The translations under genes and the position numbers were made by a program. Shown in pieces: positions 479-35,094 of a stretch of DNA of 35,094 nucleotides. The notes under the pieces were generated by a model. It did no database searches. It was not told where the DNA came from and worked only from the letters and a program-made list of their open reading frames with translations. The DNA lies in NCBI GenBank assembly GCA_021825035.1, contig JAKAIQ010000001.1:1-35094 (forward strand), read 5' to 3'. How positions within the stretch are numbered: the first letter of the stretch is position 1; each line of letters starts with the position of its first letter. Origin of the DNA: Deltaproteobacteria bacterium. GTDB lineage: Bacteria; Desulfobacterota; GWC2-55-46.

Positions 479-717
479 TACTTCTGCCCCGCCGCTTTGT
501 CGGCATCGGAAAGTGATGCTTGCTTCGTCTGGTCCTCTGATGCAGGCGTCTTATTGGTGAAAAAACCAAGCACCACGACGGCCACGCCTGCGATTATTCC
601 TTCTACTGCCTGGCTCTGGATTATGCCGGGAATATGCACCCCGCACGTCGCGAGTATGGTGAACAGTCCGGCTATGATGCCCGTAATCGTTGTCTTTAAA
701 TCGTGATTTGCGTCCAT
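478..717 (-). CDS. small two-TM membrane protein, holin-like
   Basis: 79 aa. Two hydrophobic helices (TITGIIAGLFTILATCGV, AVEGIIAGVAVVVLGFF) and a charged C-tail. GAGGAGGAG SD upstream. Lies near the lytic transglycosylase. Confidence 0.55.
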   Translation of the reverse strand: MDANHDLKTTITGIIAGLFTILATCGVHIPGIIQSQAVEGIIAGVAVVVLGFFTNKTPASEDQTKQASLSDADKAAGQK

Positions 718-1065: not shown

Positions 1066-1275
1066 CTACTTTGGGATCATGTGCTCAATAATCATGTCCA
1101 GCTTCTTCTCTATGCGGTCGAAGTTCTTGCCATTATTGTCAGAACACACCTTGCACGTGTCGGTGTAGACCACGCTTTTTTCCAGTTTGTCGAGCCTCTG
1201 CTTAAAACCGACGTAGGCCAGCAATGCGCCCAAGAGACTACCGCCACCGCCGTACCCTACGTTCTCAATGTTCAC
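1066..1275 (-). CDS. small membrane-anchored protein (N-terminal Gly-rich TM, one CxxC)
   Basis: 69 aa; GGGGSLLGALLAYVGF hydrophobic segment; lies in the lysis-proximal block. Confidence 0.55.
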   Translation of the reverse strand: MNIENVGYGGGGSLLGALLAYVGFKQRLDKLEKSVVYTDTCKVCSDNNGKNFDRIEKKLDMIIEHMIPK

Positions 1276-1489
1276 GCCAGCCGCCTTTCGCCTCCTCCGG
1301 TATGACCGCTACCGCCTTGATGCCCTTCGGGCCTTCACCGCCCTCAAACTTCACGCCCTGGCCCTCTGCCAGCGTCCTGCGGCCTCCCATTAGGATTTCC
1401 GCATGGTGGACGAAGTAATCCTTCCCGTCCTCGCCCGCTATGAAGCCATACCCTTTGCTGTCGTTGAACCACTTGACTATGCCTCGCAT
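1265..1489 (-). CDS. csp: cold-shock protein (CspA family), intact
   Basis: MRGIVKWFNDSKGYGFI...DYFVHH contains both RNP motifs; 74 aa. Confidence 0.85.
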   Translation of the reverse strand: MRGIVKWFNDSKGYGFIAGEDGKDYFVHHAEILMGGRRTLAEGQGVKFEGGEGPKGIKAVAVIPEEAKGGWREH

Positions 1490-1672: not shown

Positions 1673-2017
1673 CTATGCCGAAGTCTCAACCTCGGCGGTT
1701 TTTGCTATTCGCTGTTTGTTATCGGACAGCTTTTCTTTCCACTCTCCCGCATCCTTCTCAACCTCCGGGTTGAAACCCCGGAAGTTCCCCAGGTGTCCAA
1801 CAAACAAATGGCAGTTGACTTCCTTGTTCCCTTCGCAGAGCGCTATCAGGTTGGCTGGGTCAAGCTCCTTGTCCGGGTGCAGATGGAACGGCTTTTTGTG
1901 GTGAGCCTCCAATTTCTTCTTCCCACCGCAGACCGCGCAGGTCTTACCCATGAGAAATACCTTGCGGACTTCTGGCCACTTCGATGAACGCTTATGCTCC
2001 AACGGTTTCTTGTCCAT
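1673..2017 (-). CDS. HNH endonuclease
   Basis: CAVCGG...EAHHKKP...NLIALC...NCH: Cys4 plus the His-Asn-His pattern. Confidence 0.8.
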   Translation of the reverse strand: MDKKPLEHKRSSKWPEVRKVFLMGKTCAVCGGKKKLEAHHKKPFHLHPDKELDPANLIALCEGNKEVNCHLFVGHLGNFRGFNPEVEKDAGEWKEKLSDNKQRIAKTAEVETSA

Positions 2018-2019
2018 CC

Positions 2020-2517
2020 CTAACCCTCTTTCGCCAACTGATGATAGAAATCTAATATCCGCGAGACGTAGTTAATCGTCTGACGGGCGTTGTCGTTGCC
2101 CGTGAACTGGCGCAGGAACGGAGATACGTTGTCCCATATCCGGCTGTCCCTCTTCCCGGCCTCCGCCGCGTCCTGAGCGTCGAAGATATGCCCTTCCCCG
2201 CAGTTGTAGCCAGCGAACGCGAACTTCATGCGCTCTATCCCGTCCTCGCGTTTGAACTGTACCCAAGCCGCCGAAAGCCTCCTTACCCCGGCCTCCACGT
2301 TCTGTTCAGGGTCGAAGGCATCCGTTACCCTGAACTGCTCTATCACGGACGGCATGAGCTGCATCAGGCCCTTCGCGCCGCACGATGAGACCGCCAACGG
2401 GTTGAACGTGGACTCCTGCATTATCTGAGCCTTTATCCAGAGCCAGTCAAGGCCGCGCCACCAGCGGTTCACGGCTTGCTTTATGATGTCGTCGTACTGG
2501 TTTGTCATCTTAATCAC
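2020..2517 (-). CDS. lytic transglycosylase (SLT domain), candidate endolysin
   Basis: QESTFNP (catalytic Glu-Ser), GLMQLMP and AGYNCGEG motifs. Confidence 0.85.
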   Translation of the reverse strand: MIKMTNQYDDIIKQAVNRWWRGLDWLWIKAQIMQESTFNPLAVSSCGAKGLMQLMPSVIEQFRVTDAFDPEQNVEAGVRRLSAAWVQFKREDGIERMKFAFAGYNCGEGHIFDAQDAAEAGKRDSRIWDNVSPFLRQFTGNDNARQTINYVSRILDFYHQLAKEG

Positions 2518-25661: not shown

Positions 25662-27263
25662 TTAATCTGTCAGAACTCCAAACGTGCCGCGAGGCTCATT
25701 CAATCCCCTTGCAACTTCCCCGCGGGACCGCTTCACCGGGAACAATCTGGTCGCAACATATTGCAGACTGTCTTGTATGTCGGTGTATTTAGCGCCCGCC
25801 CCAGTCTTGTCGGGTGCATCCGCATACGTACCGCTATGCCCTCTCTCCGGGAAGGCGTATCCTCCCTCGAACCCATCTATCAGTCGGACGCAGGACGGGT
25901 CCACGAGAAAGGCGGGGTCGTCCTGGTTTATCATTCGAGGCTTCTTCCCTATTACGTTGCCCTTCTTGTCCAATTCAACATACCCGAGCCTGTTCGCCAC
26001 GCTCTCCCGCCGTATCTTGAACGTCTGTATCCCGTCCTCGATTGTAATAACCCGGTTATAATCACGCGCCTTGCCGGAAATATAATCGGCAGGACTCTTC
26101 TTATTGCTATCCCTATTCTTGCCAGCCGGGTCACCAATGTGGCGGTACGTACATCCTTCCGGGAGGTTGGCATCGCACCAAAGGATCAACGTTTCAGTAG
26201 CCGAAGTTATGCCCTCATCAAAGAAGGTGAACTCCTTGAAAACACACCACTGTCCGATGTTGTTTATGTAACTCAATGAGATGGCTGGGTGAAGACCCGT
26301 ATTATCCCATCCAACGATAATCTGCACCTTGCGTTCAGGCAAGAGCGAATAAGGAGATACGTGTATCCGACGGTCAAACTCCGGGTAAACCTGCTGCCCA
26401 CGAATGGTCACGCCCCATTCGCCACGCACCAGGGTCTGGAGCAGGTCCGGCCTGTCGGCGTAGTCCTTTTCAAGGTCTGAGTAGTAGTCAGGAGATAAGT
26501 TGTGGGCGTTCTCGGCCTGCCCCTGTTCGTAGATAGCGTATCCGTCTATTGGATTGGCCACGAAGTCTCGGTACAGCCAATGCTCGCGGTCTGGGTAGTT
26601 GGATGTTAGCTCGGTCTGTGGAGGCGTCAGGTACGGTGTGAATTTCTCCTCGTCAACCAGGTGCCTGTATCTATCGGGGTCAAAACCGCGCCACCCATCT
26701 CGCTCGAACTGCACCCAATCCTTCAGGGAAAGATAATAGCGCGGGTCGGATTTGTCGTATATCTTCTGTGAAGGAAAGCGCTTTGTCCTACCAAGGACTC
26801 CCTTGAAAACACTATTTCCTATCTCACGCGCCTCTTCTATCCATGCGCCGGTAAGCTCCAGCGAAAGAAGATTGCGCACATCCTTGTCATCATCCAGGCC
26901 CCGGAACATTATCTCTATCTCCCGGTCCTCTATCTTCATCAGGTATATGCGCTGCGTTTCCTTGTAAACTCCGAAAATGGACGGAGGATACCAGTCCAGA
27001 AAAGTCTTAATGACCGTATCCTTCAGCATCGGTATAGTATTTCTGACTATGGCGAACCTGGAACGCCTGATTCCCTCCCTGTCAGGCTTTATGCGCTTCG
27101 ACTGGAGCATTACCATGTCATAGCCAGCACTCGTTGTCTTCCCGGTTCCGAATACGCCTATAAGGAACTTCACGCGGCTCCTGATGTCAGCATGAAACTT
27201 TAGCGCAACGGGACCGCAGTTGTATTTTAAGACGTATGGCTTCGGCTTTCTCGAAGGTGCCAT
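25662..27263 (-). CDS. terL: terminase large subunit
   Basis: Walker A GVFGTGKTT, Walker B-like AWIEEA, and nuclease-half motifs IVGWDNTG and HIGDPAG; 533 aa. Confidence 0.9.
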   Translation of the reverse strand: MAPSRKPKPYVLKYNCGPVALKFHADIRSRVKFLIGVFGTGKTTSAGYDMVMLQSKRIKPDREGIRRSRFAIVRNTIPMLKDTVIKTFLDWYPPSIFGVYKETQRIYLMKIEDREIEIMFRGLDDDKDVRNLLSLELTGAWIEEAREIGNSVFKGVLGRTKRFPSQKIYDKSDPRYYLSLKDWVQFERDGWRGFDPDRYRHLVDEEKFTPYLTPPQTELTSNYPDREHWLYRDFVANPIDGYAIYEQGQAENAHNLSPDYYSDLEKDYADRPDLLQTLVRGEWGVTIRGQQVYPEFDRRIHVSPYSLLPERKVQIIVGWDNTGLHPAISLSYINNIGQWCVFKEFTFFDEGITSATETLILWCDANLPEGCTYRHIGDPAGKNRDSNKKSPADYISGKARDYNRVITIEDGIQTFKIRRESVANRLGYVELDKKGNVIGKKPRMINQDDPAFLVDPSCVRLIDGFEGGYAFPERGHSGTYADAPDKTGAGAKYTDIQDSLQYVATRLFPVKRSRGEVARGLNEPRGTFGVLTD

Positions 27264-27279
27264 TACTTATCCCTCGGAA

Positions 27280-27630
27280 TCATAAAAGCTTGCAAAGGTG
27301 CTCTACTGTTTCCTCGTTTGCCTGCTCAATCTCGTCCTCTATGGCATAACGAGAATTGCCAATAATGTAAAGCCTGCCAGTCAAAAGGTGGATAACCTCA
27401 TGTTTAGCCGTATGGTCAAGCTCTGCCTCAGTAATCGGGTGCTTCCCCCATTTGTCGGAAAGGTGAATCGACGCCTGAGCACCCTTGTAATGGAATCGGC
27501 AACAAGCCTTAGAACCCTCCAGCGAATCGCCGTGAATAATGCTTATCCCCCACGCGGTTATCTTGAACTTCTCGATATAGTGCAGGCACCGCTCTCGGAA
27601 ATAATAGAAGTCCTTTTTGCTCGTCTTCAT
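27280..27630 (-). CDS. small HExxH-motif protein (minimal Zn-metallopeptidase-like)
   Basis: 116 aa with TAKHEVIHLL; directly upstream of terL. Confidence 0.6.
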   Translation of the reverse strand: MKTSKKDFYYFRERCLHYIEKFKITAWGISIIHGDSLEGSKACCRFHYKGAQASIHLSDKWGKHPITEAELDHTAKHEVIHLLTGRLYIIGNSRYAIEDEIEQANEETVEHLCKLL

Positions 27631-27840
27631 TCCGCACCCCAGGCCAAGTGGTAAACCGGTTCGAACATATCAATCCTATTCCTACCATTGAAATCTCAGC
27701 CAAAATAAATTATCTCCAAAAACCCTTTGGCTAAAAAATTCCCCCCCAAAAAAAATCTGGACACCACCCCTAAAAAATATGGCCACACTTTCCGAGACAG
27801 GGAGATTATACGATATTCATCGCCGCCTTGCCCCGCCTAT

Positions 27841-27863
27841 GGGAGGGGTGGTGGGGGGTGGGG
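27841..27863 (+). other. G-quadruplex-capable G-tract block that competes with a hairpin
   Basis: GGGAGGGGTGGTGGGGGGTGGGG. TGGGAGGG (27840-27847) is complementary to CCCTCCCA (27867-27874). Confidence 0.5.
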
Positions 27864-27905
27864 TAGCCCTCCCACCTCTACCCATGCCCCAAATAGTCCC
27901 CCACG

Positions 27906-28172
27906 TTATCCAAAATACCCTTGTGGATAACTTTGCCTGTGGATAACTTGCCATTCCTATTAAGAGTTCCACGGTTTTCAATCCGCGAGTCGGCTTGCGA
28001 TTCAATGGCTTACAAGCAATGTTCCACGAGAGTTGACATAATACATGTTATGTGACTGCCGTTTATTTTCCTTTTGCTTTACAATGGGTTGATTGTTTGA
28101 GGTGTACCGCTTACCGCTCCCTGTGGATAACAATAAGCGCGTTTTGCCTCTATCTCGTCCGGGTTATCCACA
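27906..28172. promoter_or_regulatory. DnaA-box cluster (4 perfect, 1 one-mismatch)
   Basis: TGTGGATAA at 27922-27930, 27938-27946 and 28122-28130. TTATCCACA at 28164-28172. TTATCCAAA at 27906-27914. An AT-rich stretch lies at about 28033-28100. Confidence 0.7.
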
Positions 28173-28238
28173 GGCACCCTGGGTATCCAGCACCTCAGCC
28201 CGTTGGCGACAGTGCAGGCTATGCGTTTATTGCAGTCC

Positions 28239-28760
28239 TCAGTCCCGCTCTTGCGGCAGGTGTTGCATTCTCGATGTATTGTCATTTGTGATGTCGATTG
28301 GATCATCTACGTTTGAGACCACGGCTACTCCGCCGGTATGCTCGACCTCTACCCTGTCGGCGGGGTAGTCGCCGCATAATTTTGCGAGTTCCTTTGCCGC
28401 TGCAAGTTGCAACTGCCCGTCATCATAGATTTTTTCGTCCGTTATGATGCCTTTATCGGTAGCAGTTACTACTTTTTTTGCATCCGTGAGGGCTACAAAT
28501 TTGGCGATACGCATGCCCTCTGGCATACCGAGTTGGGCGGCTAATCGCTGATTCCGCCTCCTGATGTCCTCAATCGTTCCGTTTTCTCGCAGTTCCCTCG
28601 CGATTTGATAAGCTGTTGATTTTGTTGAGCCGTCTGAGTACCCTGCAAGAGGCGCAGCTTCGGAGACTGGCAATCCTTGGGCGAGTAATTTTGCGAATTC
28701 TCTACGATTTTTATTAAGGGGTCTTTTTTTTAGGCGGGGTTGTTTAGGCTGGTTTTTCAC
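28239..28760 (-). CDS. terS: terminase small subunit (candidate, HTH-type N-domain)
   Basis: REFAKLLAQGLPVSEAAPLAGYSDGSTKSTAYQIARELRENGTIEDIRRR resembles small-terminase DNA-binding domains. GTG start with AAAGGAG SD. First gene of the late block. Confidence 0.6.
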   Translation of the reverse strand: MKNQPKQPRLKKRPLNKNRREFAKLLAQGLPVSEAAPLAGYSDGSTKSTAYQIARELRENGTIEDIRRRNQRLAAQLGMPEGMRIAKFVALTDAKKVVTATDKGIITDEKIYDDGQLQLAAAKELAKLCGDYPADRVEVEHTGGVAVVSNVDDPIDITNDNTSRMQHLPQERD

Positions 28761-28844: not shown

Positions 28845-28888
28845 CATACTCCCTACATACTCCCTACATACTCCCTACATACTCCCTA
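28845..28888. repeat. four perfect tandem copies of the 11-mer CATACTCCCTA
   Basis: Units at 28845, 28856, 28867 and 28878. The 11-bp period equals one helical turn. Confidence 0.95.
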
Positions 28889-28895: not shown

Positions 28896-28903
28896 ATATA
28901 GAA

Positions 28904-28957
28904 GGGTAAGGGTAAGGGTAAGGGTAAGGGTAAGGGTAAGGGTAAGGGTAAGGGTAG
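28904..28957 (+). repeat. hexanucleotide microsatellite (GGGTAA)x8 plus GGGTAG
   Basis: Eight perfect units at 28904-28951. Nine G3 tracts with 3-nt loops are G-quadruplex-capable. Confidence 0.95.
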
Positions 28958-29209: not shown

Positions 29210-29374
29210 TTAGGTATTAAAAAAGGCCCCGTCGCCGGGGCCTGAAAGGTAAGGAATGGTTATTGCGCGCACACCATCGAGTATCAGCTCGCGCAGGGAT
29301 TGCCCCCGCTCGCGGGCCACGCGCTGAGCGTCGGCCCACAGGTCGGCGGGGAGGTACGGGCCTGAGGGAATAGG
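29210..29374 (-). pseudogene. start-less duplicate of the ribbon-helix-helix C-terminal domain of the 29391-29702 gene
   Basis: Own translation LPADLWADAQRVARERGQSLRELILDGVRAI versus IPADLWADAQRMARKRRQSLRELILDGIRSI. The frame is opened by a TAA with no ATG/GTG/TTG after it. Its 3' end is the terminator hairpin. Confidence 0.55.
29219..29242 (-). terminator. intrinsic terminator of the leftward regulatory operon
   Basis: Minus-strand GGCCCCG-GCGA-CGGGGCC followed by TTTTTT. Confidence 0.75.
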
Positions 29375-29390
29375 TTACGCGATCGTAGAT

Positions 29391-29702
29391 TTATCCATTT
29401 TTCGCCTGTATTATTGAGCGGATGCCATCAAGGATTAACTCGCGGAGAGATTGTCGCCGCTTACGGGCCATGCGCTGTGCATCGGCCCACAGGTCAGCGG
29501 GTATATCCCGGAGCAGGTAATCCCCCGCGCCCTCGCGGAGCATCCGGCGCGCTATGTGCATCGCGTTTACCGGCTTGCCCTCGGCCCTCAGCCTCTCAAT
29601 CTCCTGGCGTACATCTACCTGGCAGTTGCGGCAAAGGATTGTCCCACCAATACTGTAGCCGCCCTCTATCGGTTTGCCACAAGCATCACAATATTTGCTC
29701 AT
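29391..29702 (-). CDS. Zn-ribbon plus ribbon-helix-helix (CopG/Arc-like) DNA-binding protein, candidate transcriptional regulator
   Basis: N-terminal CDACGKPIEGG...CRNC. The C-terminal IPADLWADAQRMARKRRQSLRELILDGIRSI fits the RHH pattern. Confidence 0.65.
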   Translation of the reverse strand: MSKYCDACGKPIEGGYSIGGTILCRNCQVDVRQEIERLRAEGKPVNAMHIARRMLREGAGDYLLRDIPADLWADAQRMARKRRQSLRELILDGIRSIIQAKNG

Positions 29703-30202
29703 TATGCAACCTCCTTTTTTGCATTAAGATTACGGGCTACCTGCATCGCCATAGAGGCCAACGGCGAGTTATCAACCCTGACTGTTTGTACCCCGGCATC
29801 CATAAGCTTGCGGATAATTGCCGTTATTGCCTCCGCATCATCGGTAATATCATCGGGAATCTTAATCATCCATGCCTTGCGCGGGCGGCTCATGCCGAGT
29901 ATATCTCCTTGCGGGATATACTCGCCCCACTTACACCCGGCAGCCTTAAGGGCCTCCTTAATGGAGTATGTATCTCCCTTTGTAATCGCCAGATACGCGC
30001 CGCCGGAAAAGGCGTTGTAAATCAATTCCGCCGTTACTATTTCAGATTTGGCTTGTGCCTGCATCTTAGCCCTATAGCACTCTGGGCATATCTTGTTGCG
30101 CTCAAGCCACTCGATACGGCGTTCACGCTCCTTGCCCTGGCCGAACAGTTGCTCCTCGTAAGAGCCGTGCCCACATGCATAACTGATTGTGTACTTTGCC
30201 AT
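29702..30202 (-). CDS. hypothetical Zn-ribbon protein (166 aa)
   Basis: YACGHGSYEEQLFGQGKERERRIEWLERNKICPECY. AAGGGAGGG SD. First gene behind the near-consensus promoter. Confidence 0.7.
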   Translation of the reverse strand: MAKYTISYACGHGSYEEQLFGQGKERERRIEWLERNKICPECYRAKMQAQAKSEIVTAELIYNAFSGGAYLAITKGDTYSIKEALKAAGCKWGEYIPQGDILGMSRPRKAWMIKIPDDITDDAEAITAIIRKLMDAGVQTVRVDNSPLASMAMQVARNLNAKKEVA

Positions 30203-30233
30203 TTTGTCCCTCCCTTGTTAATTGATAATCAAG

Positions 30234-30262
30234 AGTATATCGCGTGATAATCAAGTTGTCAA
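30234..30262 (-). promoter_or_regulatory. sigma70-type promoter TTGACA-17-TATACT with two palindromic operators and an A/T-rich upstream element
   Basis: -35 at 30257-30262 and -10 at 30234-30239. Operators are TTGATAATCAA at 30222-30232 and TGATAATCA at 30245-30253. The A/T-rich tract spans 30266-30297. Confidence 0.7.
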
Positions 30263-30451
30263 GGGATTTTTATAAAAAAATGAAAAAAAGTGAAAATAGG
30301 GGGTGAGGGAGTATTGAGCATTATCTGGACGACCGGCCTCCGGTCGGCCGATGCCACAAGGGGGTTGACTTGAGCGTTTTCGCTGCGCACTTGCGCTTTA
30401 TAGCGCACCATGAGCGGCACTATAGAGTTTGATAACCTGCGCTTTATCAGC

Positions 30452-30480
30452 TTGAAGCAAAATATTTTCTATTCTAACAT
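30452..30480 (+). promoter_or_regulatory. candidate rightward early promoter TTGAAG-17-TAACAT
   Basis: Each hexamer matches 4/6. The TGATAA-N8-TTATCA inverted repeat (30430-30449) abuts the -35. Confidence 0.35.
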
Positions 30481-30593
30481 CCTGATTTAATTCAATTTGC
30501 AATCATTGTGCAAACGCTATAGTTATAGGCTGGCATAATTATAGCATGGCATAAACAGCAAGTGGCGAAAAAAAGCAAGGGGAAAAATTAAAG

Positions 30594-30695
30594 ATGTTCA
30601 GGATCGAGCTAAGGGGCAAGCGGTTTCTGGTTACTTTGGGGGAGTTGATAAGGCTCCAGGGCAAGGGTCTTTCTTACAGTTTCGTAATATATTAA
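30594..30695 (+). CDS. possible 33-aa leader peptide
   Basis: Own translation MFRIELRGKRFLVTLGELIRLQGKGLSYSFVIY*; distant AAGGGG SD. Confidence 0.2.
   Translation: MFRIELRGKRFLVTLGELIRLQGKGLSYSFVIY

Positions 30696-35027: not shown

Positions 35028-35094
<67 letters not shown>

Follow-up and report, generated by a model that had tools for sequence, protein, structure and literature searches.

A cluster of putative DnaA boxes between the packaging genes in an apparent prophage of a Deltaproteobacteria bacterium

The stretch of DNA studied here, 35,094 bp from a Deltaproteobacteria bacterium (GCA_021825035.1, contig JAKAIQ010000001.1; this whole stretch is called the window below), appears to carry an integrated prophage. 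Its minus-strand genes, from position 1 to ~30.2 kb, make up a podovirus-like late module, and within this module a non-coding gap of 608 bp (27631-28238), without a credible open reading frame (ORF), holds a compact array of putative binding sites of the host replication initiator DnaA (DnaA boxes; Table 1). A preliminary description of the same sequence had this gap splitting terS, for the small terminase subunit, from terL, for the large one. The gap is there, but it does not border terL directly, since an ORF of 116 amino acids lies between them; 643 nt separate the box array from the start of terL downstream. The name terS, also taken from that description, is weak but credible: besides its PHROG match, the protein has homologues with 43% identity in the closest real relative (L007) and 68% in another (L168), and the JGI name of the latter is terminase small subunit.

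The four exact TTATCCACA 9-mers of the array are the only ones on either strand of the window. Relaxing the pattern to TTWTNCACA returned these four boxes and no additional match. Such a number is not a matter of chance, as the preliminary description had argued from an expectation of ~0.3 copies: 100 shuffled controls preserving the dinucleotide composition contained 0.12 copies of TTATCCACA on average, and none of the 100 had four. Two imperfect boxes accompany them, one with a single mismatch and a weaker one with three, and beyond the former a scan for near matches found no further boxes with up to one mismatch. The array, with its four exact boxes and its 1-mismatch box, spans 286 bp (27906-28191) and falls into two groups 175 bp apart, each combining a degenerate box with two perfect ones. 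The exact boxes of the left group are in tandem with a separation of 7 bp. Those of the right group converge, with 33 nt between the 9-mers and 31 nt between the extended 12-mers. The flanks are alike in all four exact boxes, gTTATCCACA(a/g)g, and are thus of the type of R1 and R4 of oriC (gTTATCCACAg). Around one of them the similarity extends to 15 nt: the 15-mer TTGTTATCCACAGGG (28120-28134) is identical to R1 of the Escherichia coli oriC with its flanks.

It is very probable that these sequences are binding sites of DnaA, because the consensus is perfect in four copies, the flanks are optimal, and the same extended motif is clustered in phages with unrelated terminases (see below). The original identification as DnaA boxes was therefore sound. 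The recurrence of the same 9- to 12-mer next to unrelated terminases also points to a conserved host reader rather than to a phage protein or to TerS, and for this reason we rejected pac repeats recognized by a phage TerS as the identity of the 9-mers. It seems very unlikely that the 9-mers lack a function related to DnaA, being instead sites for a phage protein, remnants of a mobile insert or neutral DNA brought by recombination. Four perfect copies of the most widely conserved initiator site of bacteria, with optimal flanks, are far beyond chance, and the extended motif clusters in many unrelated phages. Such explanations could account for the lack of conservation of the boxes in relatives, for what may be a scar of recombination bordering the terS module (29260-29349 and 29411-29500), and for a perfect 14-nt inverted repeat, TGCCTGTGGATAAC at 27934-27947 and GTTATCCACAGGCA at 28163-28176, which brackets 243 bp. 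The arms of this repeat consist of a box with its flank and nothing more (box 27938-27946 lies inside the left arm), and no target-site duplication was seen by eye, which led us to reject an insert resembling a miniature inverted-repeat transposable element. The four boxes are also kept by all of the 15 contigs with an identical terL, which come from at least six samples; these contigs are 99.8 to 100% identical and are therefore uninformative on constraint.

Table 1. Features of the window and matches to the G/C-run motif in related contigs
Feature	Position	Strand	Remarks
HNH endonuclease	1673-2017	-	distal late module
SLT transglycosylase	2020-2517	-	distal late module
terL (533 aa)	25662-27263	-	Terminase_3, terL PHROGs
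116-aa ORF with HExxH motif	27280-27630	-	first gene after the gap, between gap and terL
T-tract leader	27659-27785	-	conserved with L007; lowest stability in the gap
TATAAT, candidate -10 of a late/packaging-operon promoter	27805-27810	-	predicted from conservation; poor -35
G/C-run motif (GTAGAGG...CCCACCCCCCACCAC, minus strand)	27838-27900	-	conserved upstream of the packaging operon
Near-consensus DnaA box TTATCCAAA	27906-27914	+	1 mismatch; inverted relative to the next two boxes
Exact DnaA box (agTTATCCACAag)	27922-27930	-	exact match
Exact DnaA box (agTTATCCACAgg)	27938-27946	-	tandem with the 27922 box, 16 bp start to start
Inter-group spacer	27947-28121		175 bp, 56% A+T; 68% over 28033-28100
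IHF-consensus match AATCAACCCATTG	28082-28094	-	28 bp from box 28122
Exact DnaA box	28122-28130	-	15 nt TTGTTATCCACAGGG including flanks
Exact DnaA box	28164-28172	+	convergent with the 28122 box
Degenerate box GTATCCAGC	28183-28191	+	3 mismatches
terS-like gene (173 aa)	28239-28760	-	phrog_51, E=4.8e-8
Perfect tandem arrays (CATACTCCCTA)x4 and (AAGGGT)x9	28845-28888 / 28902-28956		upstream of terS
Intrinsic-terminator-like hairpin and T run	29224-29243	-	ends the two-gene unit that precedes the terS module
G/C-run motif in relatives	L007 1389-1437; L326 ~2700-2745; L329 ~2375-2420; L330 ~615-655		
G/C-run motif in further relatives	L327 1425-1460; L328 2274-2297		

In the direction of transcription (minus strand), the stop codon of terS is followed by 47 nt, the right box group (weak box, exact box, 33 nt, exact box of opposite orientation), the spacer, the left box group (two tandem exact boxes, then the inverted 1-mismatch box), the G/C-run block, a TATAAT, the T-tract leader, and the 116-aa ORF. 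The two box groups had been thought to flank the most AT-rich part of the gap. This is not so: the least stable and most AT-rich portion is in the T-tract leader (27659-27758), the interval between the groups (28038-28097) comes only about tenth when the 60-mers of the window are ordered from the least stable, and the first rank falls to a divergent control region at 30.2-30.5 kb.

These observations bear on the idea that the array is an origin of replication dependent on the host DnaA, in which the opposed box groups, with a bend of the type made by integration host factor (IHF), would open the moderately AT-rich spacer and load the host helicase without any phage initiator. We regard this as somewhat unlikely. 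Neither side of the array has a strongly AT-rich unwinding element next to its terminal box, as the flanks are the G/C-run block (34% A+T) and the end of terS. DnaA-trios (at least three successive [T/A]A[G/A] trinucleotides), GATC sites and a graded series of low-affinity boxes are all absent from the gap; beside the boxes there are no iterons (at least three copies of a 17-22-bp repeat), the spacer having only two-copy matches of 72-76%. The preliminary description was right that no initiator (rep) gene adjoins the boxes, whose neighbors are terS, the 116-aa ORF with its HExxH motif and terL. Indeed, no replication protein or Rep family could be recognized among the proteins of the window, and this can be read in favor of an origin served by the host, as can the ~37-kb length of the contigs of relatives, which leaves little room for a replication module. 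Similarly, the outer exact boxes are opposed as are R1 and R4 of oriC, at 226 bp instead of 180 bp, with an IHF consensus between them; the window has two such matches for 0.65 expected, and the presence of IHF in the host is an assumption. The site is nevertheless set within a co-directional late operon, its nearest relatives lack the boxes, and an unregulated DnaA-dependent origin in an integrated prophage would amount to an ectopic origin in the chromosome. The GC-skew minimum of the window is at the strand switch (30.0-30.5 kb) and is confounded by gene orientation.

The window shares with the E. coli oriC the perfect boxes, the identical R1 15-mer, outer boxes opposed at ~200 bp and an IHF consensus near a box; unlike oriC, it lacks a 13-mer or AT-rich element by the outer box, an array of low-affinity boxes, DnaA-trios, GATC sites and the dnaA/dnaN neighborhood. 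Two groups of DnaA boxes flanking a central region are also found in the iteron origins of P1 (oriR), F, pSC101 and RK2, but the window has no iterons, no adjacent rep gene and no similarity to plasmids, and the element is integrated. More generally, the DNA of the gap has no similarity to the phages of INPHARED or the plasmids of PLSDB.

The gap combines two layers, an old conserved element that could be a late-operon leader or a packaging signal and a newer segment (27900-28238) with the boxes. In L007, whose TerL is 65% identical, the gap between terS and terL is 721 nt long. Its terL-proximal part aligns with the G/C-run motif and T-tract leader of the window, including an identical 15-mer CCCACCCCCCACCAC. 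On the terS side this gap is unrelated to that of the window and contains no exact box. In L168, the 140 nt downstream of terS contain no boxes and the C-run motif comes ~110 nt after terS. The conservation of the boxes in related phages, which the preliminary description had put forward as a check, thus did not hold for the two closest relatives, and relatives with ~50% identity in TerL lack boxes too. Since the two nearest relatives keep the G/C-run motif or the T-tract leader without the boxes, the box segment is a recent, lineage-specific addition. The G/C-run motif (GGGG..GTAGAGG..CCCACCCCCCACCAC), of ~30-50 nt, is conserved far above the surrounding proteins: a pattern scan found it upstream of packaging genes even where TerL is 27% and the portal-like protein 33-36% identical, and none of the relatives that have it (TerL 27-65% identical) has DnaA boxes. 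The motif could be a late-promoter element, a cos or pac signal, or a hairpin. As to structured RNA, a candidate that we rejected, a search of Rfam over 27.4-29.5 kb returned only a match at chance level (E=0.9, 29210-29279, outside the gap), and the fold of the gap is not unusual (z-score -1.4).

The podovirus-like late module also encodes a major head protein, an SU10-type adaptor, a 1552-aa internal virion protein and a large portal or head-tail connector protein (phrog_332) that is homologous to proteins of relatives tagged P22_portal in Pfam. Two cold-shock-domain (CspA-like) genes (747-932 and 1265-1489, minus strand) adjoin the HNH and SLT genes. The region from 30.7 to 35.0 kb is filled with small plus-strand ORFs. 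Between the leftward and rightward operons, both strands of the divergent control region (30199-30600) have sigma-70-like promoters close to consensus, and its short tandem repeats (30519-30587) could serve as operators. At its right end the window cuts a tRNA-Met gene (35031-35094) that continues in L001 (2195-2271), a 47.6-kb contig that is 99.8% identical and runs past the tRNA into a chromosomal-looking DUF4331 gene, for whose product the best hits reach about 50% identity and have uninformative names. Because of this end and this flank, the element appears to be an integrated prophage, not a phage-plasmid, and the tRNA-Met is likely its attachment site. They contradict, together with the lack of a plasmid match, the phage-plasmid lifestyle proposed in the preliminary description. 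No integrase is encoded in the window. The left end of the prophage is absent from every assembly: the contigs all break inside an ORF, no more than ~130 nt from position 1 of the window. For one left-end protein there is no record.

The surroundings of terS show signs of reshuffling, namely a partial gene copy and tandem arrays that vary in copy number. The former is a 90-nt direct repeat with 80% identity (29260-29349 vs 29411-29500) that partially copies the 3' end of a 103-aa gene; the copy at 29260-29349 is non-coding, lies just upstream of the terminator at 29243-29224, and looks like a recombination scar bordering the terS module. The tandem arrays upstream of terS have fewer units in L001-L003 (one unit and four units), and two contigs end there. 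Two contigs of a relative (L322 and L323) start with (GGTAAGTTC)n at the equivalent place. We take the arrays by terS to resemble the short-repeat arrays found near the terminal repeats of T7.

Are such boxes peculiar to this phage? We scanned IMG/VR with two patterns blind to genomic context, the convergent pair and the tandem pair of the extended box, and retrieved 32 loci with the former and at least 120 with the latter, i.e., more than 150 in all. The counts that follow concern the matches listed. Clusters of at least three exact boxes within 500 nt are found in 75 loci, many of them with 5 to 11 boxes, almost always in non-coding gaps and with irregular spacing and orientation. The most extreme array (L254 12862-13347, IMGVR_UViG_3300043009_000020) has 23 exact boxes in 485 nt; almost all of them point the same way, at uneven distances of 12-40 bp. 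The commonest PHROG families among the flanking proteins are the terminase large subunit, then endolysin and TerS; a few of the flanking proteins are DnaD-like, O-like or primases. A local search identified terL in 38 of the 75 loci, and in 34 of these 38 the cluster lies 0.2-2.5 kb upstream of it. The 34 represent five TerL families at 30% identity, with 26 in a single family. The array of the window, with at least three exact boxes per 500 bp in non-coding DNA, 643 nt upstream of terL and on its strand, falls under the same definition.

The window thus shares with these arrays, and with those of phages P483, A7 and phiEap-1, the extended motif (C)CTGTGGATAAC and its placement, which is either a non-coding gap 0.2-2.5 kb upstream of terL or a terminal-repeat region. 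The array of the window differs in being sparser and within a co-directional operon: most IMG/VR and coliphage arrays pack their boxes more densely (5-23, often phased at 11-12 bp), and divergent junctions hold 55% of the listed clusters, against 14% in the background. In the largest family (L184 2921-10619), the array is at the divergent junction between a T7-like replication module (Gp2.5-like single-stranded DNA-binding protein, primase-helicase and DNA polymerase) and a lysis/terminase operon. There are independent cases closer to the window than this large family. L176 and L181 have three boxes beside a CCCCCCTCCCCCC motif, ~500 nt upstream of a terS of phrog_51. In L238, L273 and L275 the cluster is directly upstream of terS/terL. 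L140, with a TerL of 30% identity, has four exact boxes in 10 kb (at 2422, 2752, 4344 and 8721). One of these is immediately upstream of the terS start and has the 15-mer of the window, CCTGTGGATAACTTG, another falls within terS, and a third closely follows terL.

Arrays of this kind also occur in cultivated phages. The T7-like Escherichia phage P483 (NC_028822.1 ~37255-37390; L321 3440-3575) has five exact and four near boxes with 11-12-bp phasing, preceded by a C-run, in non-coding DNA after a gene that is 19.5-like by position and follows terL. As in the window, a C-run motif adjoins the boxes in P483, and also in L176. The end of the genome that the P483 array adjoins is presumably a T7-like terminal repeat. 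Shigella phage A7 and Enterobacter phage phiEap-1 have this array too, the records do not annotate it, and most other T7-like phages lack it. A7 and phiEap-1 each match it at two places, of which the listed one is within ~220 nt of a record end, where a direct terminal repeat would put it. Finally, phages related to T5 have eight DnaA boxes in the injection-stop region of the terminal repeat (10.1101/866236; also cited in 10.64898/2026.01.13.699316). Full-text searches of the literature did not turn up any account of DnaA-box arrays next to terminase genes; in the searchable literature, phage arrays come down to the T5 case and to Ori-Finder-style predictions of origins for individual phages.

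The array is similar to the region of the T5 injection-stop signal (iss): both have consensus and near-consensus DnaA boxes and inverted repeats in a long non-coding phage region away from replication genes, and the arrangement is a conserved one in the T5 case (10.1101/866236). There are also differences. T5 is a lytic phage with eight boxes, in pairs 3 bp apart, in a terminal repeat, and the role proposed for them is a hypothesis; the window has four exact boxes, with a 7-bp tandem separation, 33 bp between the convergent boxes and a 175-bp spacer, in a temperate prophage. This parallel raises the possibility that the array acts near a genome terminus or in packaging, with DnaA bending the DNA for the assembly of terminase or acting on the DNA that enters the cell first or last, e.g., by anchoring, pausing or end protection. 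There is a precedent for bending, since IHF bends DNA for the assembly of terminase at cosB of phage lambda. The array lies between terS and terL beside the strongly conserved G/C-run motif, short tandem-repeat arrays flank terS, and a tandem repeat with a G-run, ~150 nt upstream of terS, is where two independent contigs of a relative begin. Furthermore, the arrays of T7-like coliphages are in or next to a direct terminal repeat, the T5 case is published, and L176 and L181 have their three boxes beside the C-run motif and upstream of a terS of the same PHROG. However, the phage is known solely from assemblies of the integrated form, its TerL matches Terminase_3 and not the T7 type, the T5 mechanism is only hypothetical, and the listed IMG/VR clusters show no significant enrichment at contig ends (12 observed for 8.1 expected; Kolmogorov-Smirnov p=0.21). 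We thus judge a role of this type to be quite unlikely.

The interpretation that we tentatively prefer, with less than even confidence, is that the array is an accessory element for docking and sequestering DnaA at the head of the packaging and late operon, and not a self-sufficient origin. DnaA, possibly with a bending protein, would loop the DNA into a complex immediately ahead of the packaging/late leader. When the phage genome is in single copy, as in a prophage or when newly injected, this complex would insulate or damp transcription from terS into the late leader. As phage genomes multiply, every copy would take four to six DnaA molecules from the free pool. The resulting depletion would lift the block on late genes and draw DnaA off the host oriC and the genes that it represses. 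The position of the array, 95-380 nt upstream of the candidate TATAAT and adjoining a motif and leader that are conserved in relatives down to 27% TerL identity, suggests that it might also gate transcription into terL. The preliminary description had left the choice between an origin and a control point titrating DnaA or gating the late packaging operon. Our results leave the former somewhat unlikely, and the latter fits them better.

Several observations make an accessory array fit better: the sporadic distribution, loose grammar and perfect high-affinity boxes of these arrays, their location, in tolerant non-coding DNA close to the packaging genes or the terminal repeats, and their occurrence in phages that have their own replisome. 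Perfect high-affinity boxes without a graded series of low-affinity ones are typical of titration sites such as datA, not of the regulated firing of an origin such as oriC. Both datA and DARS2 need an IHF site near their boxes. The window resembles datA, the DARS sites and the DnaA-box clusters of Bacillus subtilis in having a few high-affinity intergenic boxes; those sites do not fire replication and act by titrating DnaA or by controlling its nucleotide state, with local effects on transcription (PMC2533591; PMC8203912). The window also has the IHF consensus at 28082-28094, the presence of IHF in the host being an assumption. The known sites are chromosomal, conserved and mostly near oriC, whereas this array is phage-borne, lineage-specific, and should rise in copy number in lytic growth. 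The stable binding of DnaA is set by the local density and affinity of boxes (PMC2533591), and DnaA boxes carried by plasmids titrate DnaA and derepress dnaA (Hansen 1987, as cited in PMC8203912).

A number of points weigh against this interpretation. The candidate TATAAT promoter was not picked up by a scan for consensus promoters and its -35 is poor. The boxes do not overlap it, the nearest one lying ~95 nt upstream of the TATAAT (27810-27805). The DnaA-box preference of the host and the presence of IHF are assumptions. Four to six sites per genome would make a small sponge unless the copy number is high. The association with terL is inflated, because 26 of the 34 loci share one TerL family and because large non-coding gaps tend to precede terminase genes. 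In addition, the dense, phased arrays of the largest IMG/VR group look origin-like, and as the L184-family cluster heads a replication module, it could plausibly be a DnaA-assisted origin.

A broader proposal, which we consider unlikely, builds on sequestration by DnaA boxes. Phages might repeatedly acquire arrays of perfect boxes as cis-acting decoys that increase in number along with the phage genome, drain DnaA, shut oriC, derepress DnaA-controlled genes such as those of nucleotide supply and, as a timer based on copy number, open the packaging/late operon, in which case the array of the window would be a minimal datA-like version, with two box groups and an IHF bend, in a temperate podovirus.

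Clusters of DnaA boxes outside origins were already known, as was the T5 iss region, and a cluster of DnaA boxes in a phage should not automatically be called an origin. Our survey indicates that arrays of perfect DnaA boxes are not a one-off, since they occur in many uncultivated phages, in T7-like coliphages and in T5-like phages, and the arrays of P483, A7 and phiEap-1 bring the question within reach of direct tests in E. coli. If DnaA does bind the array described here, then a temperate phage ties the master initiator of host replication to the region of its packaging and late genes, and could use this link to sense or manipulate the replication state of its host.

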